A DNA stretch of 45,950 bases from NCBI GenBank assembly GCA_031409335.1, contig JANNWY010000144.1, positions 1 to 45,950 of the forward strand, written 5' to 3'. The notes under the pieces are model-generated. The model was given only the letters and a program-made list of their open reading frames with translations. It had not been told where the DNA came from and ran no database searches. Positions 21,595-39,427 of the stretch are shown one piece after another (position 1 is the first letter of the stretch; every line of letters starts with the position of its first letter). Source of the DNA: Chthoniobacteraceae bacterium. Its GTDB lineage: Bacteria; Verrucomicrobiota; Verrucomicrobiia; Chthoniobacterales; Chthoniobacteraceae. A program made the translations under genes and the position numbers.

Positions 21595-21698
21595 ATCGCG
21601 CGAAAATCGGGAGAGTGCGGAGCGTTTCCGGGCAAGTCAATCCGTGAGCGGAAATCGCTGGCCTCGCGGTCACGGAAAGCGGTAGTTCCTATTTCTGA

Positions 21699-23090
21699 AT
21701 GAACGTCCAGCCCGCCATCATTCCCCCGCTCGATCCCGGATTTGTGCCCGCCATCCTTTGGAATCGCGCGTATCGCGCCAAGTGCGGCGCGGAGCCCGGC
21801 GCGCACCCGCTCGCGATCGCGGTGGAGCGCACGGATGGCACCGTGTCGCGCTTCGACACGATCGTGCTGCCGCATGTCGGCGCGCACATTCCGCTCAATC
21901 GGAAATACGTGGAGCGGCTCGTGAAATTCCTGCTGTGGGCGCGCGGCGGGTATCGCGTGATCATCGGCGGTGACGACGCGATCGCGGTGATGCTGCGCGG
22001 GATTTATTCGGCGGGCGGCGAGCGGAAATTTGACTACGAATTCATGGGGCCGCGCGTGTATGGGCGGACGATGGAAGTCGAGTCATGCGCGCTCGCGGAC
22101 GCGCCTGCGGTGCGTGAAATTTCCATCCCGCTCGGGCGACATCTCGATGGCTGCCGCATCGGTTTCGATCTCGGCGGGAGCGATCGGAAATGCGCCGCGG
22201 TCATCGATGGAAACGTCGTCTTTTCCGAGGAGGTGACGTGGGATCCGTATTTTGAAAGCGATCCGCAATATCACTACGACGGCATCCAGGACACGCTGCG
22301 CCGCGCCGCCGCGCATTTGCCGCGCGTGGATGCGATCGGCGGCAGTTCGGCGGGCGTGTATGTGAACAACGAAGTGCGCGTCGCTTCGCTCTTCCGCGGC
22401 GTTTCGCCGGAGGATTTCGAGAAGCGCATCCGCCGCATCTTTTTCGATCTGCAAACGGAGTGGAACGGCATCCCGTTTGAGGTCGTGAACGATGGTGAAG
22501 TGACGGCGCTCGCGGGCTCGATGAGCCTTGGCGAAAACGCGGTGCTCGGCATCTCGATGGGCACGAGCGTCGCGGGCGGCTACGTCACCGCCGATGGCTC
22601 GATCACGCCGTGGCTGAACGAACTTGCCTTTGCCCCGATCGACTATCGCGACGACGCGCCGGCTGATGAGTGGAGCGGCGACATCGGCTGCGCGGTGCAA
22701 TACTTTTGCCAGCAAGGCGTCGCCCGCCTCGCCCCGCTCGCGGGTCTCACGTTGCCAAAGGAAATGAAGTTCGCCGAGCAGCTCGTGGAAGTGCAAAAAC
22801 TGATGGCCGCTGGCGACGAACGCGCTCGCCGGATTTACGAAACGATCGGCATCTGCTTCGGCTACTCGATCGCGCACTACGCCGAGTTTTACGACATCCG
22901 CGTGCTGCTCATCCTGGGCCGCGTGACGAGTGGTGAGGGCGGCGAGATCATCATCCAAAAAGCGCGCGAAGTCCTGGATGCCGAATTCCCCGAACTAGCC
23001 ACGCGCATTTCCCTCCGCACGCCGGACGAAAAAGACAAGCGCCACGGCCAAGCCGTCGCCGCCGCGAGCCTGCCCGCGCTCGCTCGCTGA
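21699..23090 (+). CDS. ROK family protein (long form, putative amino-sugar kinase)
   Basis: IGFDLGGSDRK, VNDGEVTALAG, MGTSVAGGYV, LNELAFAP and HGQAVAAASLP. Confidence 0.85.
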   Translation: MNVQPAIIPPLDPGFVPAILWNRAYRAKCGAEPGAHPLAIAVERTDGTVSRFDTIVLPHVGAHIPLNRKYVERLVKFLLWARGGYRVIIGGDDAIAVMLRGIYSAGGERKFDYEFMGPRVYGRTMEVESCALADAPAVREISIPLGRHLDGCRIGFDLGGSDRKCAAVIDGNVVFSEEVTWDPYFESDPQYHYDGIQDTLRRAAAHLPRVDAIGGSSAGVYVNNEVRVASLFRGVSPEDFEKRIRRIFFDLQTEWNGIPFEVVNDGEVTALAGSMSLGENAVLGISMGTSVAGGYVTADGSITPWLNELAFAPIDYRDDAPADEWSGDIGCAVQYFCQQGVARLAPLAGLTLPKEMKFAEQLVEVQKLMAAGDERARRIYETIGICFGYSIAHYAEFYDIRVLLILGRVTSGEGGEIIIQKAREVLDAEFPELATRISLRTPDEKDKRHGQAVAAASLPALAR

Positions 23091-23208
23091 GGCGTGAGCC
23101 GCCAAAAGGGCGGTGCTTCAAAAGACTTTCCGCAAAGCCGTGTGTTCGTCGGTGTGGCGGGTTACAAACGTTTCGTTGCCGCGAATTTCCCCGCGGCACC
23201 ACCGCCCC

Positions 23209-26200
23209 ATGAAAACATCCCTCCGCCTCCTCGCGTTCACTCTCGCTCTTGCGCTGCCAATAAAAGCGCAGCAGCCCGTCCCGCTCCGGCTCACCATCCC
23301 CGCGTCGCCGCCGCCGGGCGTGCAGCGGGAGGCTTTCCTCGGATCGAGCGTGGCGGTGGCGGGCGGCTACGCGGTGGCGGGCGCGCCGGATGACGATGCG
23401 GGCGCGCAGGATTCGGGCGTGGTGAAAGTGTTCGACTCGCGGACGGGCGCGCTGCTTTTCGTCCTGCGAAATCCCAACCCGGCATACAGTGCCAAGTTCG
23501 GCGCGGCGGTGGCTCTCTCGGGCGCGCTGCTGGTGGTGGGGACTTACAATGACAGCACGGGAGCGGTCGCGGCGGGGAGCGCGTTTGTGTACGATCTCGG
23601 GAGCGCCACGCCGACGCGGCCTGTTTTCACGCTGAACCATCCGAGCCCGTCGGCGTATGGCCGCTTCGGCTACGCAGTGGCGATCTCCGGTGCGCGCGTG
23701 GCGGTGGGTGCGTACGGGGACGATGCGGGCGCGACCGACAGCGGGAGCGCGTACGTGTATGACCTCGGCAGCGCCGCGCCCACCGTCCCGGTGCTTATTT
23801 TGCACAATCCCGAACCCGCGGCGGGCGATTATTTTGGCAGCGGGATTTCCATCTCCGGTTCGCGCCTCGTGGTGGCGGCGACCGGGGATGACACGGGCGC
23901 GAGCAGCGCCGGCAGCGTTTATGCGTACGATCTCGGCAGCGCCGTGCCTGCGGTGCCCATCGCGAAGCTGCCCAATCCGCATCCGGTCGCGAACGATTCC
24001 TTCGGCAACGCCGTGAAAATTTCCGGCACGCGCGTGGTCGTGGGGAATATCTGGGACGACACGGGTGCGACGAATGCGGGGAGCGCGTATGTCTTCGATC
24101 TCGCGGCCAGCACGCCCGCGGTTCCCGTGCTCGTTTTGCCCAATCCGAATCCCTCGGAGAGCGACTACTTCGGCGGCGCGGTCGCGATCTCCGGCGCGCG
24201 CGTCGTCGTCGGCGCTTACTTGAATGACGCGGGCGCGCTCAACGACGGGAGCGCATATGTGTACGACCTCGATAGCGCCGCGCCCGCAGTGCCCGTCGTC
24301 ATCCTGAACAACCCCGGGCCGGGGCGAGGCGACCTCTTCGGCTTGTCCGTGGCCATCTCCGGCGCGCGCGTCGCGGTGGGTGTGCCGTACGATGACGCGG
24401 GCGCGACCGACGCGGGCGGCGCGTATGTTTATGAAATGGACAGCGCCACGCCAACGGTGCCGGTGGCCACGCTGCCAAATCCCGATTCGGAGTCCGGTGA
24501 TTTCTTCGGCATCTCGGTCGCCATCTCCGGCTCGCTGATGGTGGTGGGTTCGCCCTACGACGATGCGGGCGGGGGCAGATCGGGGAGCGCACATGTCTTC
24601 GATCTGAACAGCAGCACGCCCGCAGTGCCCATCTTCACCCTGCGCAAACCGGGACCGGCGGCCGGCGACTACTTTGGCGTCGCGGTCGCGATCTCCGGCA
24701 CGCGTGTCGTGGTGGGTGCGCTCGGGGACGACACGGGCGCGACCGACGCGGGCGGCGCGTATATTTATGAACTCAGCAGCGCCACACCCGCGGTGCCCGC
24801 ATTCACTTTGCACAAGCCCGGCCCGGCGGTGAACGACGACCGCTTCGGGACTGCGGTGGCCGTGGACGGCACGCGCGTCGTGGTGGGTGTGCCCTTTGAC
24901 AAAACGGGGGCGGAGAAAGCGGGGAGCGCGTATGTCTATGATCTCGCGAGCAGCACGCCGACCGTGCCGGTGGTCACGCTGAACAATCCCGGCCCGCAGA
25001 GTTATGAATACTTTGGGACCGCCGTAACCATCGCCGGCACGCGCGTGGTGGTGAGTGCTCCCTATGACAACACGGGAGCGGGACAGACGGGGAGTGTGTA
25101 TGTGTATGACATCGGGAGCGCCGCGCCCGCCGTGCCGGTCTTCGCGTTGAACAATCCCGGACCGGGATTCAATGACTCGTTTGGCAATGCGGTGGCGATG
25201 TCCGGCGCGCGCGTGGCGGTGGGGGCCGCCTATGACGGTGCGGTCGCGATCGAAGGCGGGAGCGTTTACATCTATGACCTCGGCAGTGGCACCCCGCTCG
25301 TCCCGGTCGTGAGGCTGAACAAACCAAGCCCCGCGGATTTCGAGAACTTTGGCCGGTCGGTGTCCATCTCCGGCACGCGGATCGTGGTGGGCGCTCCCTA
25401 CGACGATCCGGGAGAAGCCGCTGCGGGAAGCGCGTACGTTTTCGATCTCAGGAGCAGCACGCCTGCGGTGCCGGTTGCCACACTGCGCAAACCCGGCCCG
25501 GCGTTGAATGACAACTTCGGCACCTCCGTGGTCATCGTCGGAAACACCGTTGCCATCGGCACGCCCAAGGGCGACTCACCGCAAGCGGTCACCGGCTACG
25601 TCTATCTTTTCGACACCTTGCCGGGGATCGCGATTCTCACCGGTCCAAATGCGCGGACCGATTCCACCAGCGCGATCTTCACCTTCGCAGGCATCGACGG
25701 GGCGACCCCGCCGGGCGCGTTCACTTTTGAAATCAGTCTCGACGGCGCGCCGTTCACACCGGCCATCAGCCCGCTCGTTTTCTCCGATCTCGCCGCTGGC
25801 CCGCACACGCTCGCCGTCCGCGCGATCGATGCCGCTGGAAATGTGAGCGCGACTCCCACCGTGTTCGCGTGGACCATTATAGTTTCCCGCCCGATCCACG
25901 ACGCGCGCTACACCGAAGGCCGCGCGGTGCCCGGCGCGGGCGGCGGCGGCATCCCCGCGGATGCTGTGTGGACGGGCTTTGGCGAGCCGGCGATCAATGA
26001 CGCGGGCGCGATCGCCTTTCTCGGAAAATGGAAAAGCGCGTCCGGCGCGGGCGCGGGTATTTTTGTGAATGACACGCTGATCGCGCGGAAGGGCGGCGCG
26101 GAAAGATTCGAGAGTTTCAAAGACCCGGTGCTCGATGCCGCCGGGCATGTGGCCTTCCTCGCGAGGATCGACGGCGCGAAACGGGACGAGGATTCCGTGC

Positions 26201-27276
26201 TCGCGACGAATGCTTTTGGCGCGCTGGAAATCGTGGCGCGCGAAGGCGCGGCGACCGCCGAGCCGGGAGCGCCGATGCTCGATCGGATCGAGAGCATCTC
26301 GCTCGTGGATGGCGAAATCCTTTTCACCGCCAGGCTGGAAGGCGGCACGCCAAAAGTGACGGACGCGAACAACGCCGCCGCATTCCGCATCTGGAATGGC
26401 GGAAGCACGCAGCATGTCGTCCGCGAAGGCGACGCGCTCGGCGCGACCACGGTGCGCAGTTTCAAACTGCTCACCGCCGTCCCCGGCTCACCCGGCCAGA
26501 AACGCGCGCACGCGGCGGGCGTGGCGACCTTCCTCGCGCTGCTCGCGGATGGCACGCAAGCCGTGGTCGAGAACGCGCGCGGGTCGCTCTACATTCGCGA
26601 GTCCGAGTTCCAGCACTACGGCGCGATCGCCACCGCCGCATCGAATCTCGCCTTCGTCGCGACGCGGGATGGCGGCGTGAAAAGCATCTTTTTAGGCGAC
26701 GCGGAATACATCGATCCAGTCGCGCAGATCGGACAAGCGACCGGCGTGGGCGCGACGAAATTCGCCGGGTTCCAAGACCCCGTGCTCGCGCCCGGCACGA
26801 ACCAGGTGGCCTTCCCCGCGACCCTCCGCGGCACAACCCGCGCGCAAGACGAAACGCTCTGGTGGCAGCCCCGCACGGGTCCGCTCACGCTCCTCGCCCG
26901 CGAAGGCGCGCAACCGCCCGAAGTGCCCGCCGGAGCAAAGTGGGATGATTTCAAAAGCCTCGCTTTCCCCGGCGGTTCTGGCGAAGCGGATTCTCTGCGC
27001 GGCCCGATCTTCCTCGCGACCATGCAGCGCGGCGCGGGCGGCATGCATCAAAGGAACGACGAGGGCGTGTGGGCCGTCGATTCCGAAGGCGCGCTGCGCC
27101 TGCTCTTCCGCGAAGGCGGCACGGTCGCGGGCGGCATCGCGAAAACGATTGCGGTGCTCCATGCCGTCCCCGGTTCGCCAGGCGTGACGCGCGCCTTTAA
27201 CAACGAAGCCCAAGTCGCGTGGCGCGCGACTTTCACCGATGGCACCAGCGCCATCGTGGTAACTCAGGTGCCCTAG
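23209..27276 (+). CDS. Secreted FG-GAP (integrin-alpha-like) repeat protein with Ig-like linker and C-terminal NxxGxxAF-type repeat domain
   Basis: Signal peptide at MKTSLR, then 14 repeats of FG.AVAISG.RVVVGA..DD.GA...GSAYVYDL. Ig-like motif HTLAVRAIDAAGN and C-terminal INDAGAIAF...FNNEAQVAW. Confidence 0.88.
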   Translation: MKTSLRLLAFTLALALPIKAQQPVPLRLTIPASPPPGVQREAFLGSSVAVAGGYAVAGAPDDDAGAQDSGVVKVFDSRTGALLFVLRNPNPAYSAKFGAAVALSGALLVVGTYNDSTGAVAAGSAFVYDLGSATPTRPVFTLNHPSPSAYGRFGYAVAISGARVAVGAYGDDAGATDSGSAYVYDLGSAAPTVPVLILHNPEPAAGDYFGSGISISGSRLVVAATGDDTGASSAGSVYAYDLGSAVPAVPIAKLPNPHPVANDSFGNAVKISGTRVVVGNIWDDTGATNAGSAYVFDLAASTPAVPVLVLPNPNPSESDYFGGAVAISGARVVVGAYLNDAGALNDGSAYVYDLDSAAPAVPVVILNNPGPGRGDLFGLSVAISGARVAVGVPYDDAGATDAGGAYVYEMDSATPTVPVATLPNPDSESGDFFGISVAISGSLMVVGSPYDDAGGGRSGSAHVFDLNSSTPAVPIFTLRKPGPAAGDYFGVAVAISGTRVVVGALGDDTGATDAGGAYIYELSSATPAVPAFTLHKPGPAVNDDRFGTAVAVDGTRVVVGVPFDKTGAEKAGSAYVYDLASSTPTVPVVTLNNPGPQSYEYFGTAVTIAGTRVVVSAPYDNTGAGQTGSVYVYDIGSAAPAVPVFALNNPGPGFNDSFGNAVAMSGARVAVGAAYDGAVAIEGGSVYIYDLGSGTPLVPVVRLNKPSPADFENFGRSVSISGTRIVVGAPYDDPGEAAAGSAYVFDLRSSTPAVPVATLRKPGPALNDNFGTSVVIVGNTVAIGTPKGDSPQAVTGYVYLFDTLPGIAILTGPNARTDSTSAIFTFAGIDGATPPGAFTFEISLDGAPFTPAISPLVFSDLAAGPHTLAVRAIDAAGNVSATPTVFAWTIIVSRPIHDARYTEGRAVPGAGGGGIPADAVWTGFGEPAINDAGAIAFLGKWKSASGAGAGIFVNDTLIARKGGAERFESFKDPVLDAAGHVAFLARIDGAKRDEDSVLATNAFGALEIVAREGAATAEPGAPMLDRIESISLVDGEILFTARLEGGTPKVTDANNAAAFRIWNGGSTQHVVREGDALGATTVRSFKLLTAVPGSPGQKRAHAAGVATFLALLADGTQAVVENARGSLYIRESEFQHYGAIATAASNLAFVATRDGGVKSIFLGDAEYIDPVAQIGQATGVGATKFAGFQDPVLAPGTNQVAFPATLRGTTRAQDETLWWQPRTGPLTLLAREGAQPPEVPAGAKWDDFKSLAFPGGSGEADSLRGPIFLATMQRGAGGMHQRNDEGVWAVDSEGALRLLFREGGTVAGGIAKTIAVLHAVPGSPGVTRAFNNEAQVAWRATFTDGTSAIVVTQVP

Positions 27277-27508: not shown

Positions 27509-29245
27509 ATGATTTCCTCCCCGCGCACATGGATTTTCGCGCTGTTTGCGGCGTTGCTCGCCGCCCTGCCTGGTGCTGCGCGGGCAACGGGGACGCTGCG
27601 ACTGGAGTTTCGCGCGGAAGAAAAGGGCGCGGCTGAAATCACGCGGCTCGACTGGCTCGTGTCAGGGCTGGCATTGCAGCGGAAGGATGGATCGTGGACG
27701 GAGGGGCGCGACTGGTTTGGCTACTTGAGCGCGCGGGAAGGGCGGCTGCAGGTCGATGCGGACGGGGTGTTGGCGGAAGACTTTCGCGCGATCCGTTTCC
27801 GCGTCGGTGTGGATGCGGCGGCAGATCAGGGCGACCCCGCGCGGTGGCCGGCGGAGCACGCGCTGAATCCGACGGTGAACCATCTGCATTGGGGCTGGCA
27901 GGGTGGTTACGTTTTTATGGCGGTCGAGGGGCGGTCGGTGGGCACGGGATTTTCGTATCATCTCGCGGGTGCGGCGAAGCCGATGGTGGTGGAATTGCCC
28001 GTCGAGTTTCGCGGCGGTGGGCCAGTGACGATCCGCGTCGCGCTGGATGCGGCGAAGGTGCTCGCGGGCGTCGATCCGGCGCGCGATGGCATCGCGACGC
28101 ACTCGCGTCCCGGCGATGCGCTGGCGGTGCGGCTGAAGCAGAACGCGGCGTCGGCATTTAGCGTCGCCGGAGTTCACTACGATCTGCTGCAAACCGCGCC
28201 CGCACTGAAAAAGACGGCCACGCGGCCCGCGGGCACGACGCCATTCGCGTTGGCAATCACGCAGCGTTTTCCGCAGGTGAATCTCCCCGCCGACAATCCG
28301 CTCACCGTCGAGGGAGTCGAGCTTGGTCGCCGCCTCTTCCACGACCCGCGTCTTTCCATCAATGCCACGCAATCGTGCGCGTCGTGCCACGATCGCGCGA
28401 ACGCGTTTGCCGATCCGCGCAAGTTCAGCGCCGGCGCGGAAGGCCAGCTCGGGAAACGCAATGCGATGCCGCTGTTCAATCTGGCGTGGGCGCAATCGTT
28501 CTTCTGGGATGGGCGCGCAAAGTCGCTCCGCGAGCAAGTGCTGATGCCGATTCAGGACTCGCACGAGATGAATGAGCGGCTCGATCGTGTGGTCGCGAAG
28601 CTCGCGGTGGACGCGGCGTATCCGGCGGAATTTGAGCGCGCGTTCGGACATCGCGAGATCACCCCGGAACGCCTCGCGATGGCGCTCGAACAATTCCTCC
28701 TCACGCTGATCTCGCAGGAGTCGCGGTTCGATCGCGCGGCGCGAAAACGTGCGGAGATGACGGAGGAGGAGAAGCGTGGGCTCCAGCTTTTCGTCACCGA
28801 ATTCGACCCGGCGCGCGGGCTGCGCGGCGCGGATTGTTTTCACTGCCACGGCGGCACGCTCTTCACGGACAATCTGTTTCACGACAACGGCCTCGCGCTC
28901 GATGAAACCGACCTCGGTCGCATGGCCGCGACCGGGCTCGCCAGCGATCGCGGCAAATTCAAAGCGCCCTCGCTGCGCAATCTCGCCGTCACCGCGCCGT
29001 ACATGCACGACGGACGTTTCGCGACGATCGAGGAAGTCGTGGAGCACTACGACTCGGGCGTGCGGCGGAATGCAAACCTCGACCCAAATCTCGCGAAGCA
29101 TCCCGAAGCCGGACTGCAACTCACTGCCGACGAAAAGCGGGCGCTCGCCGCCTTTCTCAAAACGCTGACCGACGAAACTTTCACTCACGCAGATCCCGCA
29201 ACCCCACCGCTCGTTTTCCGAGCCACAACCACCGACGTACGATGA
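27509..29245 (+). CDS. MbnP-like copper-binding domain fused to MbnH/MauG-like di-heme cytochrome c peroxidase
   Basis: Signal peptide, MbnP-type LHWGWQGGYVF (WxW), then P.DNPLT.EGVELGRRLFHD, CASCH, FFWDGRA, CFHCH and FKAPSLRNLAVTAPYMHDG..EVVEHY. Confidence 0.87.
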   Translation: MISSPRTWIFALFAALLAALPGAARATGTLRLEFRAEEKGAAEITRLDWLVSGLALQRKDGSWTEGRDWFGYLSAREGRLQVDADGVLAEDFRAIRFRVGVDAAADQGDPARWPAEHALNPTVNHLHWGWQGGYVFMAVEGRSVGTGFSYHLAGAAKPMVVELPVEFRGGGPVTIRVALDAAKVLAGVDPARDGIATHSRPGDALAVRLKQNAASAFSVAGVHYDLLQTAPALKKTATRPAGTTPFALAITQRFPQVNLPADNPLTVEGVELGRRLFHDPRLSINATQSCASCHDRANAFADPRKFSAGAEGQLGKRNAMPLFNLAWAQSFFWDGRAKSLREQVLMPIQDSHEMNERLDRVVAKLAVDAAYPAEFERAFGHREITPERLAMALEQFLLTLISQESRFDRAARKRAEMTEEEKRGLQLFVTEFDPARGLRGADCFHCHGGTLFTDNLFHDNGLALDETDLGRMAATGLASDRGKFKAPSLRNLAVTAPYMHDGRFATIEEVVEHYDSGVRRNANLDPNLAKHPEAGLQLTADEKRALAAFLKTLTDETFTHADPATPPLVFRATTTDVR

Positions 29246-32200
29246 AACCCACCCACTCCATCTCCCGCCTACTGCTGCCCGCGCTGCTCGTGCTCGCTTC
29301 GCACGGGGTTGCCGGCCCGGACGATCACGTGCTCAGCGACCAGCTCGCCGCCGAGGCTGCGGCGCTCGCGCCCGCTTTCGTCGCACCCGCCGCTGCCGCG
29401 CCTGCCGATCCGACTGGCGCCGGCGCGTGGGGCGCGGTGATTGCCTGGACGCCGCACATTCCCGTCACGGCCGCGACGCTGCCCGATGGCCGCTTGCTCA
29501 CGTTCGCGTCGAATCAGCGCACCACTTTCCCCGGCGGCCCCGAGTTCACGTACGCCGCCGTCTGGGATCCGGCGACCGGCGTTTTCACCGAATTCAACAA
29601 CACCCGCCACGACATGTTTTGCGGCGGCACCGCGATGCTGCCGGACGGGCGGGTCGTCGTGAATGGCGGGCGCAACACGACCGTGCTTTCGAGCATCTTC
29701 GACTACCGCACCAATCAATGGACGGCCTTGCCAAACATGAATGATCCGCGCTGGTACAACACCAGCGTCGCCCTCTCCGATGGCAACGTCTTCACCGTCA
29801 GTGGCAGCGGCGGCTCGAACACGGCGGAGCGCTGGGACTCGGCGTCCGGCTGGCGGCGGCTCACGGGCATTGGCTGGGGCGCGGTCACGAGCCAGCCCGG
29901 CTACATCAATATCTGGCACCCCTTCCTGGCGCTCGCGCCGAACGGCAATCTCTTCCACTTCGGGCCGACCGACGTGATGAATTGGGTGAACCCGGACGGT
30001 GCCGGTTCGCTCACGCCTTCCGGCCTAAACGTGCCCGGCTCGCACTACCCGAAGGAAGGCGCATCGGCGATGTATGAGGCGGGGAAAATCCTCGTCACTG
30101 GCGGCGGCGCGACCACCACGCCGAACCCGAACGACTCGACCACCGGCACCAGCACGAACATCAGCTACACCGTCGATTTGAACGGCCCGACGCCCGTCAT
30201 CACGCCCGCCGCGTCGATGCAATTCACCCGGCAGTTTGCGAACTCCGTGATCCTGCCGAGCGGCGAAGTCATGGTCATCGGCGGCAACACGAGCGGTTTG
30301 AAATTTAACGACACCGGCTCGGTGCTGACGCCGGAAGTCTGGAACCCGCGCACCGGCACCTGGCGCACGCTCGCGAACATGGCGGTGCCGCGGAACTATC
30401 ACTCCGTCGCGCTGCTGTTGCCCGATGGGCGCGTGTGGTCCGGCGGCGGCGGACTGGGTGGAAATGCAGCGGACCATCGGGATGCGCAAATCTTCACGCC
30501 GCCCGCGCTGTTCAATGCCAACGGGACGCCAGCGACGCGGCCAGTGATCACGCAGGCTCCCGCGCAGATTGGCATTGGCGCGCGCTTCACGGTGCTGTCC
30601 GAGGCGGGCCTCGCGAAGTTCGCGTTCATCAAAATGTCCTCGCAAACGCATTCGATTAACACCGACGTGCGTTACCTCGAACTCGGCTTCACGGAACCCG
30701 CTCCGGGCACCTACGAGATCACCGCGCAAAGCAATCGCAACGTGCTCACGCCGGGCTACTGGATGCTCTTCGCGCTAAATTCCGCGAGCGCGCACTCGGT
30801 CGCGAGAATCATCCAGGTGACCGCCGACAACGCGCCGACGATCACGAATCCCGGCGATCAGCTCACTTCACAAAATGCCGCGGCGAGTTTGCAAATCGTG
30901 GCATCGGCACCGAGCGGCGGGGCGCTCACCTATACCGCGAGCGGGCTGCCCGCGGGCCTCGGCATCGCGAGCGCCACGGGCCTCATCAGCGGCACCATCA
31001 CCGCCGCGCCAGCCGTGTATCCCACGACCGTGACGGTCACTGCCCCGACCGGCTCGGCGGCCAGCGCGTCGTTCAATTGGACCGTGCTCCTGCCCAATCT
31101 CGGCAGCGGGCAAATCCTGCGCGAATGGTGGCTGGGCATCGCCGGCTCGGCGCTCACCGATCTCACGAACAACGCGGCCTATCCCGCCAGCCCGACGGGC
31201 CGCGATTCGCTCACGAGTTTCGAGACGCCGACCGATTGGGCGGACAATCTCGGCCAGCGCGTCCGCGGCTATGTGCATGCGCCGGTGAGCGGCCAGTTTC
31301 GTTTCTGGATAGCGGGTGACGACGAGTCGCGGCTGCTGCTCAGCACGAATGCCAGCGCGGCAAACGCGGCGCAAATCGCGCGCGTCCCGAGCTGGAGTTC
31401 GTCGCGCGAATGGACGAAATTTCCCGAGCAAACTTCCGCGCTCATCACACTCGTCGCCGGCCAGCGTTACTACATCGAGGCGCTGATGAAAGAAGGCGGC
31501 GGCGGCGACAATCTCGCGGTCGCGTGGGCCGTGCCGGGCACGAGCGCGCCGGTCGTGATCTCCGGCCAGTATCTCTCGCCGTTCCTCATCCGTTCGCCGT
31601 TGCTCACCTCGCCGGGAAATCAGAGCACCGTCACCGGCTCGAATGTTTCGCTCGCGATCCAGGCAACCGATCCCGATGGCGACGCGATCACTTTTTCTGC
31701 CACGGGACTGCCGACGGGACTGGCGATCTCCGCCGCATCCGGCGTGATCTCCGGCACGCCAGCGAGCGCGGGGAATTTCTCCGTGACCGTCACCGCCACC
31801 GACGGCGTCAGCACACCGGCTTCGGCGGCGTTTTCGTGGACGATCGTGAATGGACTCACGCTATCCGCGCTCAGCGGAGCGCCGCAGGTGAACGGGACCA
31901 ATGTGAGCCTCACCGCGGCGAGCACCGGCGGGACGAATCCGCGCTACACCTGGAGCTTCGGCGATGGCTCGCCGGACACGGCGTGGTCGAGTTTCCCGGC
32001 CACTGCGCACGCATTCCCCGGACCGGGCCGCTACATCGTCACCATCACCGCGACCGATGACACCGGTCGCGTCGTGAGCACGAGTTTCAACCAGGCGATT
32101 CACGCGCCGCTCACCGCGCGCAAGCCCGCAGTCTCGGGCAGCATCGCCTACCAAACACGCGCCACCGGCAACGCGCGGCTGTGGGTCGTGAACCCTGACA

Positions 32201-35046
32201 ACGACAGCGTCAGCGTCTTCGACGCCGTGACGCGCGCGAAACTCGCCGAGACCGCCGTCGGCGCCGCGCCGCGCGCGCTCGCCATCGCGCCCGATGGCCG
32301 CGTGTGGGTGACGAATGCGGATGCCGCGACGATCTCGATCCTGAGCAACTCGACGTTTGCGGTCGCGCAGACCATCGCGCTACCGCGCGGCGCGCGGCCA
32401 TTCGGCATCGCATTCGATCAGGCGAATGCGTGGGTCGCGCTCGAAGCGACGGGTCGTGTGCTGCGGCTCGATGCGGGCGGCGCGCAGACCGCGAACATTG
32501 ATGTCGGCTTGAATGCGCGACACGTCTCGATCAGCGCGGACGGCGCGCGCGTTTACGTGAGCCGCTTCATCACGCCGCGAATCTCCGGCGAAGAAACCGC
32601 CACGATCACCACGACGAATCAAGGCGGCGAAGTTGTCGTCATCGACACCGCCGCGCTCGCCGTCGAGCGCACTATCATCCTTGCCCACAGCGAGGAACTC
32701 GACACCGCGATCTCCGGTCGGGGCATTCCAAATTACCTCGGCGCGACGGCGATCTCGCCGGACGGACTCTCCGCGTGGGTGCCGTCGAAGCAGGACAACA
32801 TCAAGCGCGGCGTCCTGCGCACCGGCCAGCAGCTCACGCACGAAAGTGCGGTGCGCCCGATCGCCTCGCGCATCGACCTCGTCGCGCAGGCAGAGGACTA
32901 CGGCGCGCGCGTCGATCTCGACAACGCCGGAATGCCGAGCGCGATCTGCTTCGATCCGTGGGGCATCTACGCCTTCACCGCGATCGAGGCCAGCCGCTCC
33001 GTCGCGGTCATCGACGTGTGGAATCAGCGGGAAATCGTGCGTTTCAATGTCGGGCGCGCACCGCAGGGGCTCACCATCTCGCCGGACGGCGGCACCCTGT
33101 TCGTCCACAACTTCATGGATCGCACCGTGACCGTTCACAACGTGAGCGGCATCATCGGCGGCAGCGAATTGCCCGCGGCGACCGCGGCGACTTTGAATTG
33201 CGTGGCAGTGGAAAAACTGGCCGTGCAAGTGCTGCTCGGCAAACAGCTCTTCTACGATGCGAAAGACAACCGCCTCGCGCTCCAGGAATATATTTCCTGC
33301 GCCGCCTGCCACAACGAAGCCGGGCAGGACGGCCGCGTGTGGGATTTCACCGGCTTCGGCGAAGGCCTGCGCAACACGATCACGCTGCGCGGCCACGGCG
33401 CGCACGGGGTGCCGCACTGGACCGGCAACTTTGATGAAGTGCAGGATTTTGAAAATCAGATCCGCAACTTCGCCGGCGGCACTGGCCTCATCGCGAGCGG
33501 CACGCCGAACCCACCGCTCGGCGCGCCTAACGCCGGACGCAGCGCCGATCTCGACGCGCTCGCCGCGTATGTCGCCTCGCTCACAAAAACTGGCGCGAGC
33601 CCGGCGGCACCGTCTGCCGCCGGACGCACGATCTTCAAGCAACAGAACTGCGCGAGCTGCCACAGTGGCGCGGCATTTACGAACAGTGCGCTGAACGTGT
33701 TCCGCAATGTCGGCACGATCAAACAACCGACGAGCGGCCAGCGGCTCGGCGCAGCACTGCCGGGCTTCGACGTGCCGACGCTGCGCGGGCTGTGGGCGAC
33801 CACGCCGTATTTGCACGACGGCTCCGCGACCACGGTCGCCGACGCGATCCGCGCGCACAGCGGCGTGACGCTCAGCGATCCCGACCTCGCGAATCTCGCC
33901 GCGTATGTCGCCAACATTGACGACGACATCGCCAGCGCACCGTCGCTGCTCACGCTCACGCTCACCACGCCGTCGGCAAATGTGAGCGGCGCGTTCACCG
34001 TCACCGCCACGTTCGGCGGACCCGCGAGCGGCTTCGCCCTTGCCGACATCGCGGTCGCGAATGGCACCGCCGCGAACTTCATCGGCAGCGGCGCGAGCTA
34101 CAGTTTTACCGTCACGCCGAGTGCGCTCGGCGCAGTGAATGTGTCCGTCGCGGCAGGTCAGGCGCTTGATCTGGATGGCGATGCGGGCCTCGCGTCGAAC
34201 ACGCTCGCGGTGAATTACGCGCAGGTGAACCGCGCGCCGACGATTGCCGCCGTCAGCAACCAAACCACCGTGCGCGGAAACAGCGCGAGCCTGCAAATCG
34301 CCGCGAGCGATCCCGACGGCCAGACGCTCACGTATTCCGCGAGCGGCTTGCCTGCGGGGCTTTCGATCAACGCGACGGGTCTCATCTCCGGCACGGTCAG
34401 CGCGGGTGCGGCGGCCACGAATACTGTGACCGTCACGGTGGGCGACGGCAGCCTCACGGCGAGCACGGGCTTCACGTGGAGCACCACCGCGCCGCTCGCG
34501 CTCGCACTCACCGGCCGCGACATCGGCTCGCCGGGCCGCGCGGGAAGCAATTCGCTCGCGGCTGGCGTTTACACCATCGCGGGCAGTGGCGCGGACATCT
34601 GGGGCACGAGCGACAAATTCCGCTACGTCTCGCAAACGTTTACTGGCGACGGCGAAATCATCGTGCGCGTCACTTCGCAGACGAACACGAACGTCTGGGC
34701 GAAAGCCGGCATCATGTTCCGCGAAACGCTCAACGCGAATTCGCGCCAAGCGATGATGGTGCTCACGCCGGGCAACGGCACCGCGTTCCAATATCGGGCC
34801 GCGACCGCCGGCGCGAGTTCGCACGTCGGCGGTGCCGCCGCCGCTGCGCCGAACAACTGGCTGCGCCTCGCCCGCCGCGGCAATGTCTTTACCGGCTACC
34901 GATCGAGCGACGGGGTGAACTGGACGCAAGTCGGCACCGCGACGATCCCGATGGCGACGGCGATCAACATCGGCATTTGCGTGACCTCGCATGTGAACGC
35001 GACGTTGAGCACCGCGAAGTTCGACAACGCGCAACTCAAACCCTGA
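29242..35046 (+). CDS. Secreted multidomain copper-radical (galactose oxidase-like) oxidase fused to PA14, Ig/PKD, YVTN propeller and di-heme cytochrome c peroxidase-like domains
   Basis: HDMFCGG, RWYNT, RNYHS and QTHSIN give the Cys-Tyr/Tyr/His/His set. Also ASGLPAGL Ig repeats, PA14 (EGGGGDNL), PKD (WSFGDG), WVVNPDNDSVSV propeller, CAACH, CASCH, PYLHDG and a C-terminal lectin-like WAKAGIMFRE domain. Confidence 0.88.
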   Translation: MKPTHSISRLLLPALLVLASHGVAGPDDHVLSDQLAAEAAALAPAFVAPAAAAPADPTGAGAWGAVIAWTPHIPVTAATLPDGRLLTFASNQRTTFPGGPEFTYAAVWDPATGVFTEFNNTRHDMFCGGTAMLPDGRVVVNGGRNTTVLSSIFDYRTNQWTALPNMNDPRWYNTSVALSDGNVFTVSGSGGSNTAERWDSASGWRRLTGIGWGAVTSQPGYINIWHPFLALAPNGNLFHFGPTDVMNWVNPDGAGSLTPSGLNVPGSHYPKEGASAMYEAGKILVTGGGATTTPNPNDSTTGTSTNISYTVDLNGPTPVITPAASMQFTRQFANSVILPSGEVMVIGGNTSGLKFNDTGSVLTPEVWNPRTGTWRTLANMAVPRNYHSVALLLPDGRVWSGGGGLGGNAADHRDAQIFTPPALFNANGTPATRPVITQAPAQIGIGARFTVLSEAGLAKFAFIKMSSQTHSINTDVRYLELGFTEPAPGTYEITAQSNRNVLTPGYWMLFALNSASAHSVARIIQVTADNAPTITNPGDQLTSQNAAASLQIVASAPSGGALTYTASGLPAGLGIASATGLISGTITAAPAVYPTTVTVTAPTGSAASASFNWTVLLPNLGSGQILREWWLGIAGSALTDLTNNAAYPASPTGRDSLTSFETPTDWADNLGQRVRGYVHAPVSGQFRFWIAGDDESRLLLSTNASAANAAQIARVPSWSSSREWTKFPEQTSALITLVAGQRYYIEALMKEGGGGDNLAVAWAVPGTSAPVVISGQYLSPFLIRSPLLTSPGNQSTVTGSNVSLAIQATDPDGDAITFSATGLPTGLAISAASGVISGTPASAGNFSVTVTATDGVSTPASAAFSWTIVNGLTLSALSGAPQVNGTNVSLTAASTGGTNPRYTWSFGDGSPDTAWSSFPATAHAFPGPGRYIVTITATDDTGRVVSTSFNQAIHAPLTARKPAVSGSIAYQTRATGNARLWVVNPDNDSVSVFDAVTRAKLAETAVGAAPRALAIAPDGRVWVTNADAATISILSNSTFAVAQTIALPRGARPFGIAFDQANAWVALEATGRVLRLDAGGAQTANIDVGLNARHVSISADGARVYVSRFITPRISGEETATITTTNQGGEVVVIDTAALAVERTIILAHSEELDTAISGRGIPNYLGATAISPDGLSAWVPSKQDNIKRGVLRTGQQLTHESAVRPIASRIDLVAQAEDYGARVDLDNAGMPSAICFDPWGIYAFTAIEASRSVAVIDVWNQREIVRFNVGRAPQGLTISPDGGTLFVHNFMDRTVTVHNVSGIIGGSELPAATAATLNCVAVEKLAVQVLLGKQLFYDAKDNRLALQEYISCAACHNEAGQDGRVWDFTGFGEGLRNTITLRGHGAHGVPHWTGNFDEVQDFENQIRNFAGGTGLIASGTPNPPLGAPNAGRSADLDALAAYVASLTKTGASPAAPSAAGRTIFKQQNCASCHSGAAFTNSALNVFRNVGTIKQPTSGQRLGAALPGFDVPTLRGLWATTPYLHDGSATTVADAIRAHSGVTLSDPDLANLAAYVANIDDDIASAPSLLTLTLTTPSANVSGAFTVTATFGGPASGFALADIAVANGTAANFIGSGASYSFTVTPSALGAVNVSVAAGQALDLDGDAGLASNTLAVNYAQVNRAPTIAAVSNQTTVRGNSASLQIAASDPDGQTLTYSASGLPAGLSINATGLISGTVSAGAAATNTVTVTVGDGSLTASTGFTWSTTAPLALALTGRDIGSPGRAGSNSLAAGVYTIAGSGADIWGTSDKFRYVSQTFTGDGEIIVRVTSQTNTNVWAKAGIMFRETLNANSRQAMMVLTPGNGTAFQYRAATAGASSHVGGAAAAAPNNWLRLARRGNVFTGYRSSDGVNWTQVGTATIPMATAINIGICVTSHVNATLSTAKFDNAQLKP

Positions 35047-35049
35047 ACC

Positions 35050-36117
35050 ATGAAACTCCGCGCCAATTTCCTCCTCTCGATCCCGCTCGCCGCGGCGATG
35101 GTGTACGTGTTTGGCAAGATTCCCGTCGCCGATCACGCGGAGTCCACCATCCCGGCAGCGCGCCCCGCCCCGGTCGCCGAGTGGAGCGCGCGGACTCCGC
35201 CCGACGTGAGCGGCGCGGCGGAAGACCCCGCAGTTCCCGCGAATCTGATCGACGACCTGGTCGCCGAACGGGCTGGCACCGGTCCGGAAAGTATCCTCGC
35301 AAAAATAGCGGACGAAGAAGTGCGGCGGCAGTTCGCGCGCGATTGGAGTCGGACCGAGCCGCAGCGCGCCGCAGCGTGGGCGGCCGCGCTTCCGCCCGGT
35401 GAAGCGCGCGACGCGATGTTTGATCAAGTCGCGCTCGGCTGGATCGAGCAGGACGCGACCGGCGCAGTCGCGTGGGCGAATCGCATGACCGAAGACGCCA
35501 CGCGCGAGCGCCTGCTCAATCTGCTCGCCGTCGAGTTTGCGCGCACCGATCCCGTGTCCGCGCTCGACATTGCCGCGCGCCTCACCGCGAGCGCTGAACG
35601 CGACGAACTCTGCCGCCACGCCGTCGCGCAGTGGGCCGTGAAGGATGCCGCCGCCGCGATCGCGTGGGCCGGGGAGATCGCCGACACTGTGCTTCGCGCG
35701 GAGCTGCTGCACGCCATCGTTGCCGTGTGGTCCGCCAGCGAACCCGCTGCCGCCGCCGCTTTCACCGCGACGAGCATTCCCGCCGAGAATCAGCCCCGCG
35801 CCGCCGCCTCCGTCACCCGCGAATGGGCGTTGCGCGATCCCGCCGCCGCCGCCGCGTGGGTCGCCCGCTTTCCAGATAATGCGATGCGCGACTCCGCGTC
35901 CGGGAGCCTCCTCGCGGTGTGGGCCGCGCAGGATGCCGCCGCCGCCGCCGCCTGGATCGCTTCGCTGAAAAATCCAAGCTGGCAGGACAAGGCAAACGCC
36001 TTTCTGGCGAGCGAAATCGCCACGCGGAACGCCCCGCTCGCGCAGCAACTTACCGCCCAAATTTCCGACCCGGCGCTCCGCGCTGAAAACGAGGCACGAC
36101 TCGCCGGGCAGCGTTGA
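35050..36117 (+). CDS. Membrane-anchored helical-repeat hypothetical protein
   Basis: N-terminal hydrophobic segment and repeated W...DP.AA.AW motifs. Starts 3 bp after the oxidase gene. Confidence 0.8.
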   Translation: MKLRANFLLSIPLAAAMVYVFGKIPVADHAESTIPAARPAPVAEWSARTPPDVSGAAEDPAVPANLIDDLVAERAGTGPESILAKIADEEVRRQFARDWSRTEPQRAAAWAAALPPGEARDAMFDQVALGWIEQDATGAVAWANRMTEDATRERLLNLLAVEFARTDPVSALDIAARLTASAERDELCRHAVAQWAVKDAAAAIAWAGEIADTVLRAELLHAIVAVWSASEPAAAAAFTATSIPAENQPRAAASVTREWALRDPAAAAAWVARFPDNAMRDSASGSLLAVWAAQDAAAAAAWIASLKNPSWQDKANAFLASEIATRNAPLAQQLTAQISDPALRAENEARLAGQR

Positions 36118-36185
36118 TTCGCGGCGTCCGCCCATTTTCGCTGGCCCTGAAATGCGGGCAGAGATAGGCACTCGGAGTGAGTCCG

Positions 36186-37040
36186 ATGCACTTCCACAAT
36201 CCCGCTGCCGACATCTCCATCCCCGACGGAAAACCGCCCGCCGCGGCGCTCGCCCGCGTCACGCATCTCGGCATTGGCGCGCATCAGGATGATTTGGAAT
36301 TCATGGCCTTCCACGGGATTCTCGCGTGCTTCAACAGCGACGCGGATTGGTTTGGCGGGGTGACTTGCACGAACGGGTCGGGCAGTTCGCGGATTGGTGC
36401 CTACGAGAAATTCCCGGATGCGCGGATGATGGAAGTGCGGCGCGAGGAGCAGCGACAGGCGGCGATCGTGGGGCGGTATGCGGCGATGGTGCAGCTCGAT
36501 TATCCGAGCCAGATCGTGAAGGACGCGGCGGATGTGACGTTGAAGAATGACCTGAAGGCGATCCTCGCGGCGACCAAGCCGCGCATCGTTTACACGCACA
36601 ATCCGGCGGACAAACACGACACGCACATCGCGGTGGTGGTGCCGGTGTTGCAGGCGATCCGCGAGCTGCCGCGCGAGCAGCGGCCCGCACAGGTGCATGG
36701 CTGCGAAGTTTGGCGCAGCTTGGATTGGATGCCCGATGGGGAAAAAATCGCGCACGACGTGAGCGGCCACGAAAACCTCGCCGCGGCGCTCAATGGCATC
36801 TTCGATTCGCAGATCGCCGGGGGGAAACGCTACGACCTCGCCGTGCTCGGTCGCCGCCGCGCAAACGCGACGTTTTTTGAAAGTCACGGCGTGGATGCAA
36901 GCGACGCGCTCGCCTTTGCGATGGATCTGACGCCGCTCGCGCACGACGACTCGCTGGACATCGTGGATTACGTCGCGGGTTTCATCGACCGCTTCAAAGC
37001 TGACGTGGTGACGAAACTGAGGAAGCGGCTTGGAAAATAA
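36186..37040 (+). CDS. PIG-L/LmbE family N-acetyl-sugar deacetylase
   Basis: GAHQDDLEFMA, TNGSGS, RREEQ.QAA and HNPADKHDTH. An alternative GTG start lies at 36177. Confidence 0.88.
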   Translation: MHFHNPAADISIPDGKPPAAALARVTHLGIGAHQDDLEFMAFHGILACFNSDADWFGGVTCTNGSGSSRIGAYEKFPDARMMEVRREEQRQAAIVGRYAAMVQLDYPSQIVKDAADVTLKNDLKAILAATKPRIVYTHNPADKHDTHIAVVVPVLQAIRELPREQRPAQVHGCEVWRSLDWMPDGEKIAHDVSGHENLAAALNGIFDSQIAGGKRYDLAVLGRRRANATFFESHGVDASDALAFAMDLTPLAHDDSLDIVDYVAGFIDRFKADVVTKLRKRLGK

Positions 37041-37118
37041 ACGCAGAGACGCGGAGGGCGCAGAGGATGATTTGTTGTCGGACCTCTGCGTCCTCCGCGC
37101 CTCTGCGTCTCTGCGTTT
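37039..37118. repeat. Palindromic intergenic repeat with 9-bp (CGCAGAG/CGCGGAG) units
   Basis: aaacgcagagacgcggagggcgcagagg ... cctctgcgtcctccgcgcctctgcgtctctgcgttt. Same architecture as 9456-9551. Confidence 0.88.
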
Positions 37119-37135
37119 TCAAATAAATCTTCCCA

Positions 37136-37918
37136 ATGGAAATCGTCATCCAACCCACCGCCGAAGCCGCCAGCATCGTCGCCGCAAAAATCATCGCGCA
37201 ACTCGTCTGCCGAAAACCTGACGCGGTGCTCGGCCTCGCCACCGGCAGCACGCCGTTCGCGACCTATCGCGAACTCGTGCGGATGCATCGCGAGGACGGC
37301 CTCGATTTCTCGCATGTCCGCACTTTCAATCTCGATGAATACGTCGGCCTGCCGCACGAGCACCCGCAGTCGTACCACGCGTTCATGCGCGAAAATCTTT
37401 TCCGCCACATCAATGTGCCGCGCGAAAACATCCGCATCCCGAATGGCCTCGCCACCGATGTGCCCGCGGAGTGCGCGGCCTACGAGGCGGCGATCCGCGC
37501 CGCGGGTGGGATTGATTTGCAAGTGCTCGGCATCGGCACGGACGGGCACATCGGGTTCAACGAACCGTCCTCATCGCTCGCCTCGCGCACGCGGATCAAG
37601 ACGCTGACCGCGCGCACGCGCAGCGACAACGCGCGCTTTTTCGGCAGCACAGATGAAGTGCCGATCCACGTCATCACGATGGGCGTCGGCACGATCATGG
37701 ATGCGCGGCAGGTGCTGATGCTGGCATTCGGCGAAGGCAAGGCGAAGGCCATCGCGGATGCGGTCGAGGGGCCGATCATGGCGATGAATCCGGCGTCCAT
37801 TTTACAAATGCATCCCGTCGCGAAATGCCTCATCGACGAGGCTGCCGCGGCGAAGCTCGCGCGGCGCGAATACTACGAATGGGTGTACGAACGGAAGCCG
37901 CAGTGGCAGCGGTTTTAG
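37136..37918 (+). CDS. nagB: Glucosamine-6-phosphate deaminase
   Basis: VLGLATGSTP, TFNLDEYVGL, GGIDLQVLGIGTDGHIGFNEP, ITMGVGTI and PASILQMH. Confidence 0.96.
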   Translation: MEIVIQPTAEAASIVAAKIIAQLVCRKPDAVLGLATGSTPFATYRELVRMHREDGLDFSHVRTFNLDEYVGLPHEHPQSYHAFMRENLFRHINVPRENIRIPNGLATDVPAECAAYEAAIRAAGGIDLQVLGIGTDGHIGFNEPSSSLASRTRIKTLTARTRSDNARFFGSTDEVPIHVITMGVGTIMDARQVLMLAFGEGKAKAIADAVEGPIMAMNPASILQMHPVAKCLIDEAAAAKLARREYYEWVYERKPQWQRF

Positions 37919-37990
37919 GCGGGGCGATCACTTGCGCAAAACGCAATTCCTTCTCGCCATCGCGCGCGGATTCGCGATTCCATCGGGCCC

Positions 37991-39427
37991 ATGAAAATCC
38001 TCCTCGCTGCCAGTGAAATGGCGCCGCTCGCGCGCACTGGCGGGCTCGGCGATGTGCTGGAGGCGCTGCCGGGGGCGCTGACGGCGGCGGGACATGAGGT
38101 GAGCGTGGTGCTGCCGTGTTATCGCGGGTTGCGGGATGATTTGAAGCTGGGCGCGCAGGGCACGGGCGTCGCGATTCCGATTCAGGTCGGCGGGAAGGTT
38201 CACGTCGCGGAAATCCTCCAGGCGACGGCTCCGAATGGGACGCAGGTTTTCCTAGTGCGGCGCGATGAATACTTTGATCGTGCGGGGCTTTATGGTGAGG
38301 ACGGGCAGGATTATGGCGACAATGCGGAGCGGTTTATTTGGTTTTCAAAGGCGGTGGTGGAGCTGGCGCGGCGGCTGGTGCCGGGGCCGGATATCGTCCA
38401 TGTCCATGACTGGCAGACGGCGCTGGTGCCGGTGCTGATGAAGGATCGGCGGCTGCCTTTCAAGAGCGTGCTGACGATTCACAATCTGGCGTATCAGGGC
38501 GCGTTCTGGGGCCACGATTTCGGGTTGACGAATCTGCATTCGAGCTACTTCGGCGCGCGGGGCGTGGAGTTTTACGGGAATCTGAATTTGCTGAAAGGCG
38601 GCATTCTTTTCGCCGATCAGGTGATGACGGTGAGCGACCGCTATGCGCATGAAATCCAGACGCCGGAATACGGCTGCGGGCTGGATGCGGTGTTGCGCGA
38701 AAATGCCGGGAAACTCTCGGGCGTGCTGAATGGCGCGGACTACTCGGCGTGGGACCCGGCGATCGACACGCGGCTGCCGAAGCGCTTTTCCCCTGAAAAT
38801 CTCGCGGGGAAAAAAGACGCGCGCGCGGCGCTGCTGAAGGAATGCGGGCTGGAGCCGTCGCCGTGCGGGCCGGTGTTTGGGATGGTGTCGCGCCTTGCGG
38901 AGCAGAAGGGGATCGATCTGCTGCTGCCGCTGTTCGACCGGCTGCTCGCGGATGATGTGCGGCTGGTGATCCTTGGCGAAGGCGATACGGCGTATGAGCG
39001 GGAATTGCTGATCGCGAGCAAACGGCACGCGGGGCGTTTCGCGTACCGGAAGACGATGGACGACCGGCTGGCGCATCTCATCGTGGCAGGCGCGGATGTT
39101 TCGCTTATCCCGTCGCATTTCGAGCCGTGCGGGCTGACGGCGATGTATTCGCTGAGATACGGGACGCTGCCGATCGCGCGGGCGACGGGCGGGCTTTTCC
39201 AGATGATCCGCGACTACGATCCGACGCGCGACGCGGGGAACGGGCTCGTCTTTTACGACTACTCGGCGCACGCGCTGTGGGACACGATCCTCCGCGCGAA
39301 GCACTATTTCGCCGACACGGAGCATTGGGAAAAGCTGATGCGTCGGGCGATGGCGTGTGATTTTTCGTGGGAGCGGGCGGTGGAAAAATACGAGGCGATT
39401 TACGGTCGCGCGCTCGGCGTGAAATAG
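37991..39427 (+). CDS. glgA: Glycogen synthase
   Basis: EMAPLARTGGLGDV, VHVHDWQT, TIHNLAYQG, SRLAEQKG and PSHFEPCGL. Confidence 0.95.
   Translation: MKILLAASEMAPLARTGGLGDVLEALPGALTAAGHEVSVVLPCYRGLRDDLKLGAQGTGVAIPIQVGGKVHVAEILQATAPNGTQVFLVRRDEYFDRAGLYGEDGQDYGDNAERFIWFSKAVVELARRLVPGPDIVHVHDWQTALVPVLMKDRRLPFKSVLTIHNLAYQGAFWGHDFGLTNLHSSYFGARGVEFYGNLNLLKGGILFADQVMTVSDRYAHEIQTPEYGCGLDAVLRENAGKLSGVLNGADYSAWDPAIDTRLPKRFSPENLAGKKDARAALLKECGLEPSPCGPVFGMVSRLAEQKGIDLLLPLFDRLLADDVRLVILGEGDTAYERELLIASKRHAGRFAYRKTMDDRLAHLIVAGADVSLIPSHFEPCGLTAMYSLRYGTLPIARATGGLFQMIRDYDPTRDAGNGLVFYDYSAHALWDTILRAKHYFADTEHWEKLMRRAMACDFSWERAVEKYEAIYGRALGVK

Follow-up and report, generated by a model that had tools for sequence, protein, structure and literature searches.

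The gene at positions 29242..35046 (+ strand) of the window, the 45,950-nucleotide stretch of Chthoniobacteraceae DNA analysed here, encodes by homology and Pfam assignment a 1934-aa protein in which an AA5 copper-radical oxidase (CRO) is fused to a propeller-diheme module. This fusion of two known enzyme kinds is real, conserved and apparently undescribed. No description of it was found in the open-licence PMC and bioRxiv literature, which was covered mostly by listings and abstract openings; such proteins might be listed in the supplements of PMC12758564, PMC6405878 and PMC11267884. The protein is a new form of oxidase-peroxidase pair whose heme class is unusual. By analogy with known oxidase-peroxidase systems, and at slightly under even confidence, we propose that the propeller/two-heme module may serve as a built-in activator, which re-oxidises the Cys-Tyr cofactor of the tethered oxidase.

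The reading frame is uninterrupted across 1934 codons, its GC3 of 0.835 is similar to that of the neighbouring genes, and the fusion is present in a single copy in the source genome (7.9 Mb, 98% complete), whose nearest named relatives are Verrucomicrobiota. Residues 1 to ~24 (29242..29313, + strand) are predicted from sequence and hydropathy to form a Sec-type signal peptide. This N-terminal hydrophobic stretch is the basis on which the protein is predicted to be secreted; the hydropathy profile revealed no further long hydrophobic segments in the 1934-aa protein. An extracellular location and targeting to a glycan we only infer. No promoter-like site was found at the locus, and terminators were not in excess. 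From the N-terminus, Pfam and NCBIfam searches assign a kelch/Glyoxal_oxid_N domain with GO-like_E_set, followed by He_PIG, PA14, He_PIG, PKD, a YVTN-type propeller, CCP_MauG with Cytochrom_C, Big_12, He_PIG/Big_9 and DUF1349. The PA14, PKD/Ig and YVTN domains and the two CxxCH motifs (nt 33298 and 33649) named in the first-pass annotation were thus recovered. Its lectin-like tail was recovered in part: the DUF1349 (ConA-like) match supports a fold-level label only, as its score of 27.2 bits lies below the curated cutoff of 32.4.

The AA5 domain (29413..30822, + strand) consists of a kelch propeller and an E-set domain, as found by Pfam and by structure-sequence alignment. Its best match is the bacterial galactose oxidase 9G8H (E 3.5e-101), and the Fusarium enzyme 1GOF is matched with E 1.2e-79. 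The catalytic motifs reported in the first-pass annotation were all found on the + strand, namely HDMFC at nt 29620 (C127), RWY at nt 29755 (Y172), RNYHS at nt 30397 (Y386/H387) and QTHS at nt 30649 (H470). The five copper and cofactor residues align to 1GOF/2EID and correspond to Cys228, Tyr272, Tyr495, His496 and His581 of galactose oxidase in the numbering used in the text of PMC11611005. They are unchanged in 120/120 of the closest long homologs, which together with the 9G8H match excludes, at the sequence level, chance as an explanation of the oxidase identity. Gly190, located 18 residues past the cofactor Tyr as had been noted, occupies the Trp290 position and aligns without gaps to the Gly of PDB 2EID, which we take to be the W290G variant of galactose oxidase. 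In place of Arg330 and Gln406 of galactose oxidase, the protein has Ile222 and Asn297. Since all three residues of galactose 6-oxidase specificity are substituted, the AA5 domain is likely to act on a substrate other than galactose, in agreement with the earlier suggestion. The GlxA model NF052501 scores 159.8 bits against a cutoff of 800, so the domain does not fall into the GlxA group either.

The fold, the Cys/Tyr/Tyr/His/His set and the equivalents of Phe194 and Phe464 are shared with the AA5_2 oxidases (1GOF, 9G8H/9G43, 5C86). The protein differs from these enzymes in the Gly/Ile/Asn replacements, in the lack of an N-terminal CBM32, in ~1400 extra residues bearing the hemes, and in the new conserved residues K271, E272, K354 and W225, which are invariant in the near clade and variable in more distant oxidases. 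The 167 dereplicated fusions have Gly at the Trp290 position in 98 cases, Ala in 17, Ser in 14, Trp in 10, Pro in 8 and other residues in 20, so that the Trp290 equivalent is missing from 157/167. A tie between Gly190 and the fusion was considered and rejected: 10/167 fusions retain Trp, and oxidases without the module also have Gly. Glycine at this position is a trait of the oxidase subfamily and is not needed by the fusion.

The seven-bladed YVTN-type propeller (32134..33207, + strand) scores above the cutoff of the YVTN repeat model TIGR02276, carries invariant residues and is followed by a di-heme domain of the bCcP/MauG fold (33214..33927, + strand). The latter contains the motifs CAACH and CASCH and the residues W1393, E1399/D1402/Q1406 and H1539. 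When residues 958-1565 were folded together (AF2, 112 sequences), a pLDDT of 92.9 and a pTM of 0.93 were obtained; modelled without the propeller, the heme-1 lobe fell to a pLDDT of 36-65. The propeller and the heme domain are therefore predicted to form one unit. The closest structure to this unit, as judged from the models and with near-tied di-heme ranks, is hydrazine synthase (HZS) beta-gamma. The propeller aligns to HZS beta (5c2v_B) with Z 35.7 and rmsd 1.9 over 302 residues, a tie with 1l0q_A. In the profile search, the di-heme domain matched HZS gamma with E 2.6e-22 and a CcP with E 5.1e-21. VIA-align gave Z 12.9 and rmsd 5.3 over 213 aligned residues for HZS gamma and Z 11.9 for the runner-up di-heme enzyme, a near tie given the modest heme-only model (pLDDT 71), and Foldseek placed canonical CcPs ahead of HZS gamma. 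In HZS (5C2V) and its non-anammox homologs (described in PMC12758564) a seven-bladed propeller likewise precedes a bCcP-fold di-heme domain with a His/His second heme. The query differs in that His144, Cys165 and Asp168 of HZS gamma are replaced by Trp, Ala and Thr, in a stretch where the pairwise alignment is weak. It reaches only 52.6 bits against a cutoff of 1250 with the HZS model NF052342, has no alpha subunit and is fused to an oxidase; it is not a hydrazine synthase by any of these features.

Membership of the bCcP/MauG fold is indicated by PF03150 (36.8 bits, above 25.6) and by Z values of 9-13 to seven members. The two CxxCH motifs, the inter-heme Trp and the PYxHDG motif are common to the domain and to bCcP, MauG, MbnH and BthA, and the bridging residue W1393 is retained in 322/322 sequences; the domain is shorter than in these enzymes and joined to the propeller. 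H1539 lies at the position of the sixth ligand, in a gap-free alignment to position 294 of MauG, to the Met of 1IQC/3O5C (NeCcP Met) and to the Tyr of MbnH 6E1C; 3ORV is presumably the Y294H variant of MauG. A His is found at this position in 152/161 fusions with two CxxCH motifs, 7 being unparsed and 2 having other letters. The second heme is thus likely to be His/His-ligated. Met and Tyr sixth ligands are described in PMC11892367 as defining the canonical bCcP and MauG classes. Because His1539 takes the place both of the Met of a His/Met electron-transfer heme and of the Tyr of MauG, MbnH and BthA, the domain is, on its aligned ligands, outside both canonical classes; TIGR03791 and TIGR04039 score far below cutoff.

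The distal Gln/Pro/Glu triad, which PMC6405878 describes as common to bCcP, MauG and BthA, is out of sequence register in the fusion protein, where the corresponding positions are Phe/Ile/Gly. An acid near the distal Glu position is found in just 8/161 fusions. E1399, D1402 and Q1406, spaced i, i+3, i+7, are nearly invariant; they putatively line the distal pocket and may substitute for the triad. Peroxide chemistry at the di-heme domain is accordingly plausible from its sequence. The earlier assignment of a di-heme peroxidase has to be amended, as the domain is not canonical: heme 2 is likely bis-His, the triad is out of register and the heme domain forms one predicted unit with the propeller.

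The linkage of this module to AA5 oxidases was assessed in several sequence sets. Among the 120 closest long homologs, drawn from a search that took proteins of 1063-3385 aa only, the heme module is present in 118; the two exceptions are 1087 and 1393 aa long. Shorter matches above 50% identity were often flagged partial or located on short contigs. The 80 genome loci comprise 60 fusions, 15 loci cut by contig ends, 4 frame-broken loci and one locus (L077) without hemes. The best 150 50%-identity representatives include 89 fusions, 21 long proteins without this module and 40 short ones. In the reverse direction, an alignment of oxidase-free heme lipoproteins was used as the query. The 80 metagenome loci retrieved contain 62 AA5 fusions, 3 loci with AA5 directly upstream in a separate ORF, 14 cut loci and 1 locus with none. 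An oxidase is thus attached or adjacent in 65/66 informative metagenome loci of the heme clade. This near-obligate link to AA5 indirectly supports a functional coupling of the heme module and the oxidase. The oxidases partnered by the module in the reverse search are 27-71% identical to the query oxidase. A module shared by such divergent oxidases, with a varied Trp290 position, fits a role directed toward the shared cofactor more than one directed toward a single substrate.

By record titles, the family occurs in Verrucomicrobiota and Pseudomonadota, and its distribution is patchy. Among 301 Verrucomicrobiota, the oxidase clade was found, at E 1e-60, in the source genome only. In Gammaproteobacteria, 7/400 genomes matched, one of them unpublished and used for no claim, and the 8 regions examined comprise 6 AA5 fusions, one cut locus and one region of a sister type. 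A cultured Comamonadaceae plasmid carries a fusion which keeps Trp and Arg and adjoins a SCO gene. Three loci (L027, L038, L050) are titled Akkermansia muciniphila or Bifidobacterium; the loci are of the Prosthecobacter-like Verrucomicrobia type, and the titles may be mislabelled. In 3/150 representatives (P0464, P0467, P0475), the AA5 domain is combined with another di-heme domain, of the MauG type and with a Tyr ligand; this looks like an independent fusion.

The spacer and the tail vary within the family. The spacer (30835..32106, + strand; He_PIG, PA14, He_PIG, PKD by Pfam) contains a PA14 domain that scores 25.1 bits against a cutoff of 24 and is present in 21/120 homologs, while PKD is present in 119/120. 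The distance between oxidase and propeller ranges from 167 to 666 residues among the 120 homologs; in the short-spacer homologs L079 and L071, the stretch between the oxidase and the end of the heme domain, both included, spans ~1255 residues. Of the tail domains (33952..35043, + strand; Big_12, He_PIG/Big_9, DUF1349), Big_12 occurs in 56/120 homologs and DUF1349 in 63/120.

The linkage has exceptions. Complete oxidases that are 51-53% identical and lack the module are known from L077, P0374, P0377 and P0400, several of them with Gly at the Trp290 position; no heme module was found when the L077 genome was searched. Conversely, L155 contains a heme module without an oxidase, and stand-alone heme lipoproteins of ~680 aa nest within the fused clade (support 0.995). 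The latter (P0315, P0320, P0336 and similar, one of them named Lautropia) consist of the propeller-diheme unit alone. In a sister heme family with 37-47% identity, AA5 was seen in none of the 14 verrucomicrobial regions, 13 of which belong to the sister type and one of which is cut. Its members lack the His at the 1539 position and carry an N-terminal propeller in place of AA5 (LVIVD in 2/3 scanned). In the heme tree, the fused group is not separated from two sister sequences. A comparison of the oxidase and heme trees (90/168 sequences) revealed 19 of 45 supported oxidase splits to be shared and 12 to be conflicting. Module-free close oxidases, oxidase-free heme proteins and partly discordant trees count, at the level of sequence, against an activator role of the module. 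The first two may instead point to a general-purpose propeller-diheme unit with chemistry of its own, possibly not involving peroxide, that sits together with the oxidase on one large surface scaffold, with no redox exchange between the two. The action of HZS gamma on NO, the LVIVD-type propeller of the sister proteins and the distant propeller-heme paralogs of the source genome (24-29% identity) are consistent with such a scaffold. We regard it as improbable: the oxidase is retained in 65/66 informative loci of the heme clade, whereas all other accessory domains swap freely, and a second di-heme type is likewise fused to AA5.

The sister proteins (L166, L167, L168, L169, L173-L181) are 1500-2100 aa long, with an N-terminal LVIVD-like propeller and Big_5 ahead of the propeller-diheme unit, and occur in ~10/300 sampled Verrucomicrobiota. 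Recurring His-containing motifs in their N-terminal propeller could be a metal site. A slower evolution of the heme module than of the oxidase was also considered and is unsupported: the median identities of 48% vs 39% come from a biased set, and the tree lengths are 42.7 vs 40.5 for 90/168 sequences.

The gene upstream of the fusion (27509..29245, + strand) had been overlooked. It encodes an MbnP-MbnH fusion (PF20243 E 6e-21, PF03150 E 2e-56), with the probable start ATG at 27509 and the longest ORF from 27422, and its stop overlaps the start of the oxidase gene (ATGA). The product contains an MbnP domain with the WxW motif (WGW at 27890) and a His/Tyr di-heme domain (CxxCH at 28376 and 28835; Tyr ligand motif EEVVEHY), the combination typical of an MbnP-MbnH pair. 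TIGR04039 scores 255 bits, below its cutoff of 363, and TIGR04052 is listed with its cutoff likewise unreached. According to PMC11951088, MbnH turns an MbnP Trp into kynurenine, making a copper site. The MbnP-MbnH gene is likely, from its sequence, to supply copper to the oxidase, and the earlier picture of a self-contained machine does not fully hold. MbnH lies upstream in 56/80 genome loci (47/63 of those with at least 1.5 kb upstream) vs 2/80 metagenome loci, and SCO1/SenC is found within 2.5 kb in 50/80 metagenome loci vs 0/80 genome loci; these related loci are not independent samples. MbnH and SCO occur together in none of the 80 genome and 80 metagenome loci. As two unrelated copper-handling systems flank the same fusion, the neighbourhood suggests that the oxidase is probably copper-loaded and active.

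The 355-aa hypothetical protein encoded 3 nt downstream (35050..36117, + strand; no Pfam) is possibly co-transcribed with the fusion. It is found in 1/80 genome loci and 0/80 metagenome loci, matches Verrucomicrobiota hypothetical clusters and is not a conserved part of the system. Directly upstream of the MbnP-MbnH gene, an unconserved neighbour (23113-27276) encodes a 1387-aa protein that contains 13 FG-GAP_2 repeats and ends in a tail of the DUF7453 / NxxGxxAF type. The regions 20650-23090 and 36177-39427 contain a ROK-family gene, a PIG-L deacetylase, a glucosamine-6-phosphate isomerase family gene and a glycogen synthase; these GlcNAc/ROK genes were not seen as recurring neighbours at related loci.

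The route to activation of the oxidase by its own heme module can be outlined in five steps. Anatomy, conservation, linkage and neighbours are observed; every chemical step is our inference. The first step would be export and the attachment of heme in the periplasm, as suggested by the signal peptide, the CxxCH motifs and the cytochrome c assembly proteins encoded in the source genome (PF01578, 2 matches). In the second step, judging from what is known of the family, copper would be loaded and the Cys127-Tyr172 crosslink self-made, the copper likely coming from the overlapping MbnP-MbnH gene. In the third step, the oxidation of an alcohol other than galactose, probably part of a glycan bound by the accessory domains, would release H2O2. 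In the fourth step, H2O2 would react with heme 1 to form a compound-I-like oxidant; bis-Fe(IV) is not expected, since heme 2 is likely His/His. In BthA, as described in PMC6405878, a His sixth ligand abolished bis-Fe(IV) and kept peroxidase turnover. In the last step, this oxidant would turn the resting Cu(II)-Cys-Tyr site back into the active radical, with some of the peroxide consumed. By analogy with the fungal Perox-AlcOx system, this might take place in cis, across the flexible Ig spacer, or in trans.

Several observations favour this activation of the cofactor by the tethered module. Both active sites are conserved. CROs are described in PMC12951238 as made largely in a semi-reduced, inactive form that needs priming, and the same text proposes a loop in which a little H2O2 yields compound I and compound I activates the oxidase. 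The fungal tandem peroxidase activates its CRO despite weak peroxidase activity (as stated in PMC9770985), and the W290H variant is reported to require a stronger oxidant than the wild type (PMC11611005), a Trp that 157/167 fusions are without. Other points count against it. With the distal triad out of register, activation of H2O2 would hang on the putative substitutes E1399, D1402 and Q1406, and a spacer of such varied length counts against one fixed docking geometry. DtpA gave the Streptomyces GlxA no boost over HRP, as stated in PMC4736821, and HZS gamma, the nearest structure, is described as reducing NO instead of peroxide (PMC12758564, PMC12607021). When the AA5 propeller (residues 60-429) was modelled in complex with the propeller-diheme unit, the score was 0.00, which speaks neither way.

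The H2O2 made by the oxidase may alternatively be used by the heme module on an outside target, such as an aromatic compound, a polymer or a protein. Such a relay would account for the linkage equally well and parallels glyoxal oxidase feeding lignin peroxidases and GlxA feeding DtpA. It would tolerate the long variable spacer, because H2O2 diffuses; indeed, H2O2 made by GlxA is reported to yield DtpA compound I without strong binding (PMC4736821). The invariant residues of the propeller packed on the heme lobe could shape a substrate channel, like the HZS beta loop described in PMC12758564 and PMC12607021. However, both the external target and the distal acid are putative, and the conserved neighbours are copper chaperones rather than degradative enzymes. 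We consider this use of the peroxide somewhat unlikely. The module may also turn H2O2 into water, drawing electrons through the His/His heme from a donor in the periplasm, and so protect both enzyme and cell, or act as a sink for electrons from the reduced copper site. CROs are reported to be destabilised by H2O2 (PMC12951238), and the bCcP fold with its bridging Trp is consistent with such a role. Yet the Met ligand that defines the canonical, efficient bCcPs in the text of PMC11892367 is missing, and no donor cytochrome is among the conserved neighbours, so that we judge this role quite unlikely. Re-activation of the cofactor, use of H2O2 on an outside target and its removal can coexist.

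The fungal Perox-AlcOx systems of Colletotrichum and Magnaporthe (PMC9770985, PMC12951238) likewise pair an AA5 oxidase with a heme partner, for which a priming loop fed by H2O2 has been proposed. As described there, they consist of two secreted proteins, the partner being a class II single-heme peroxidase, and the modelled fungal pairs have a Cu-Fe distance of about 17-21 A (PMC12951238); here a single bacterial chain contains a c-type di-heme domain with a propeller, and its activating role is the one we propose. In Streptomyces, GlxA is another bacterial CRO that is tied to a heme peroxidase as well as to copper chaperone function (DtpA, Sco and ECuC; PMC4736821), and SCO also flanks many of the AA5/di-heme fusions. 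DtpA is described as a separate DyP-type b-heme enzyme, whereas the di-heme domain lies in the same chain as the oxidase. A link to cellulose synthase was not seen for the fusion.

CROs are biocatalysts that require HRP or chemical oxidants to stay active (as stated in PMC11611005 and PMC12951238), and their natural partners in the cited papers, fungal Perox and Streptomyces DtpA, are separate proteins. If nature has a single-chain version, it could be taken over as a design, and the priming of CROs in cells could be tested on it directly. Many of the HZS beta-gamma-like proteins mentioned in PMC12758564 are uncharacterised, and the fusion suggests for them a function that can be tested. It also adds a naturally occurring, likely His/His-ligated member to the bCcP/MauG family and gives MbnP-MbnH a candidate client for its copper. 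More tentatively still, bacteria may have widespread self-priming CROs, in which a His/His, propeller-capped third ligand class of the bCcP/MauG family, most closely related to HZS beta-gamma, would act as a tethered, substrate-independent radical activator of diverse AA5 domains. If so, non-anammox beta-gamma-like proteins would gain their first function, and an MbnP-MbnH copper pair its first client enzyme.

Elsewhere in the source genome (C204, C302, C316, C86, C195, C218, C95, C61) there are two additional MbnP+MbnH loci, another MbnH-like gene, the several distant propeller-heme paralogs and a distant AA5-like gene (26% identity). At two loci (L194:9787-11097, L199:9824-11470), a separate MauG/MbnH-like di-heme gene adjoins the gammaproteobacterial fusion. 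A small hypothetical gene without a Pfam match directly follows the fusion at L172:8342-8854 and L113:5860-6345; at L172 it sits between the fusion and SCO, and a cluster of similar size is present in 6 metagenome loci.
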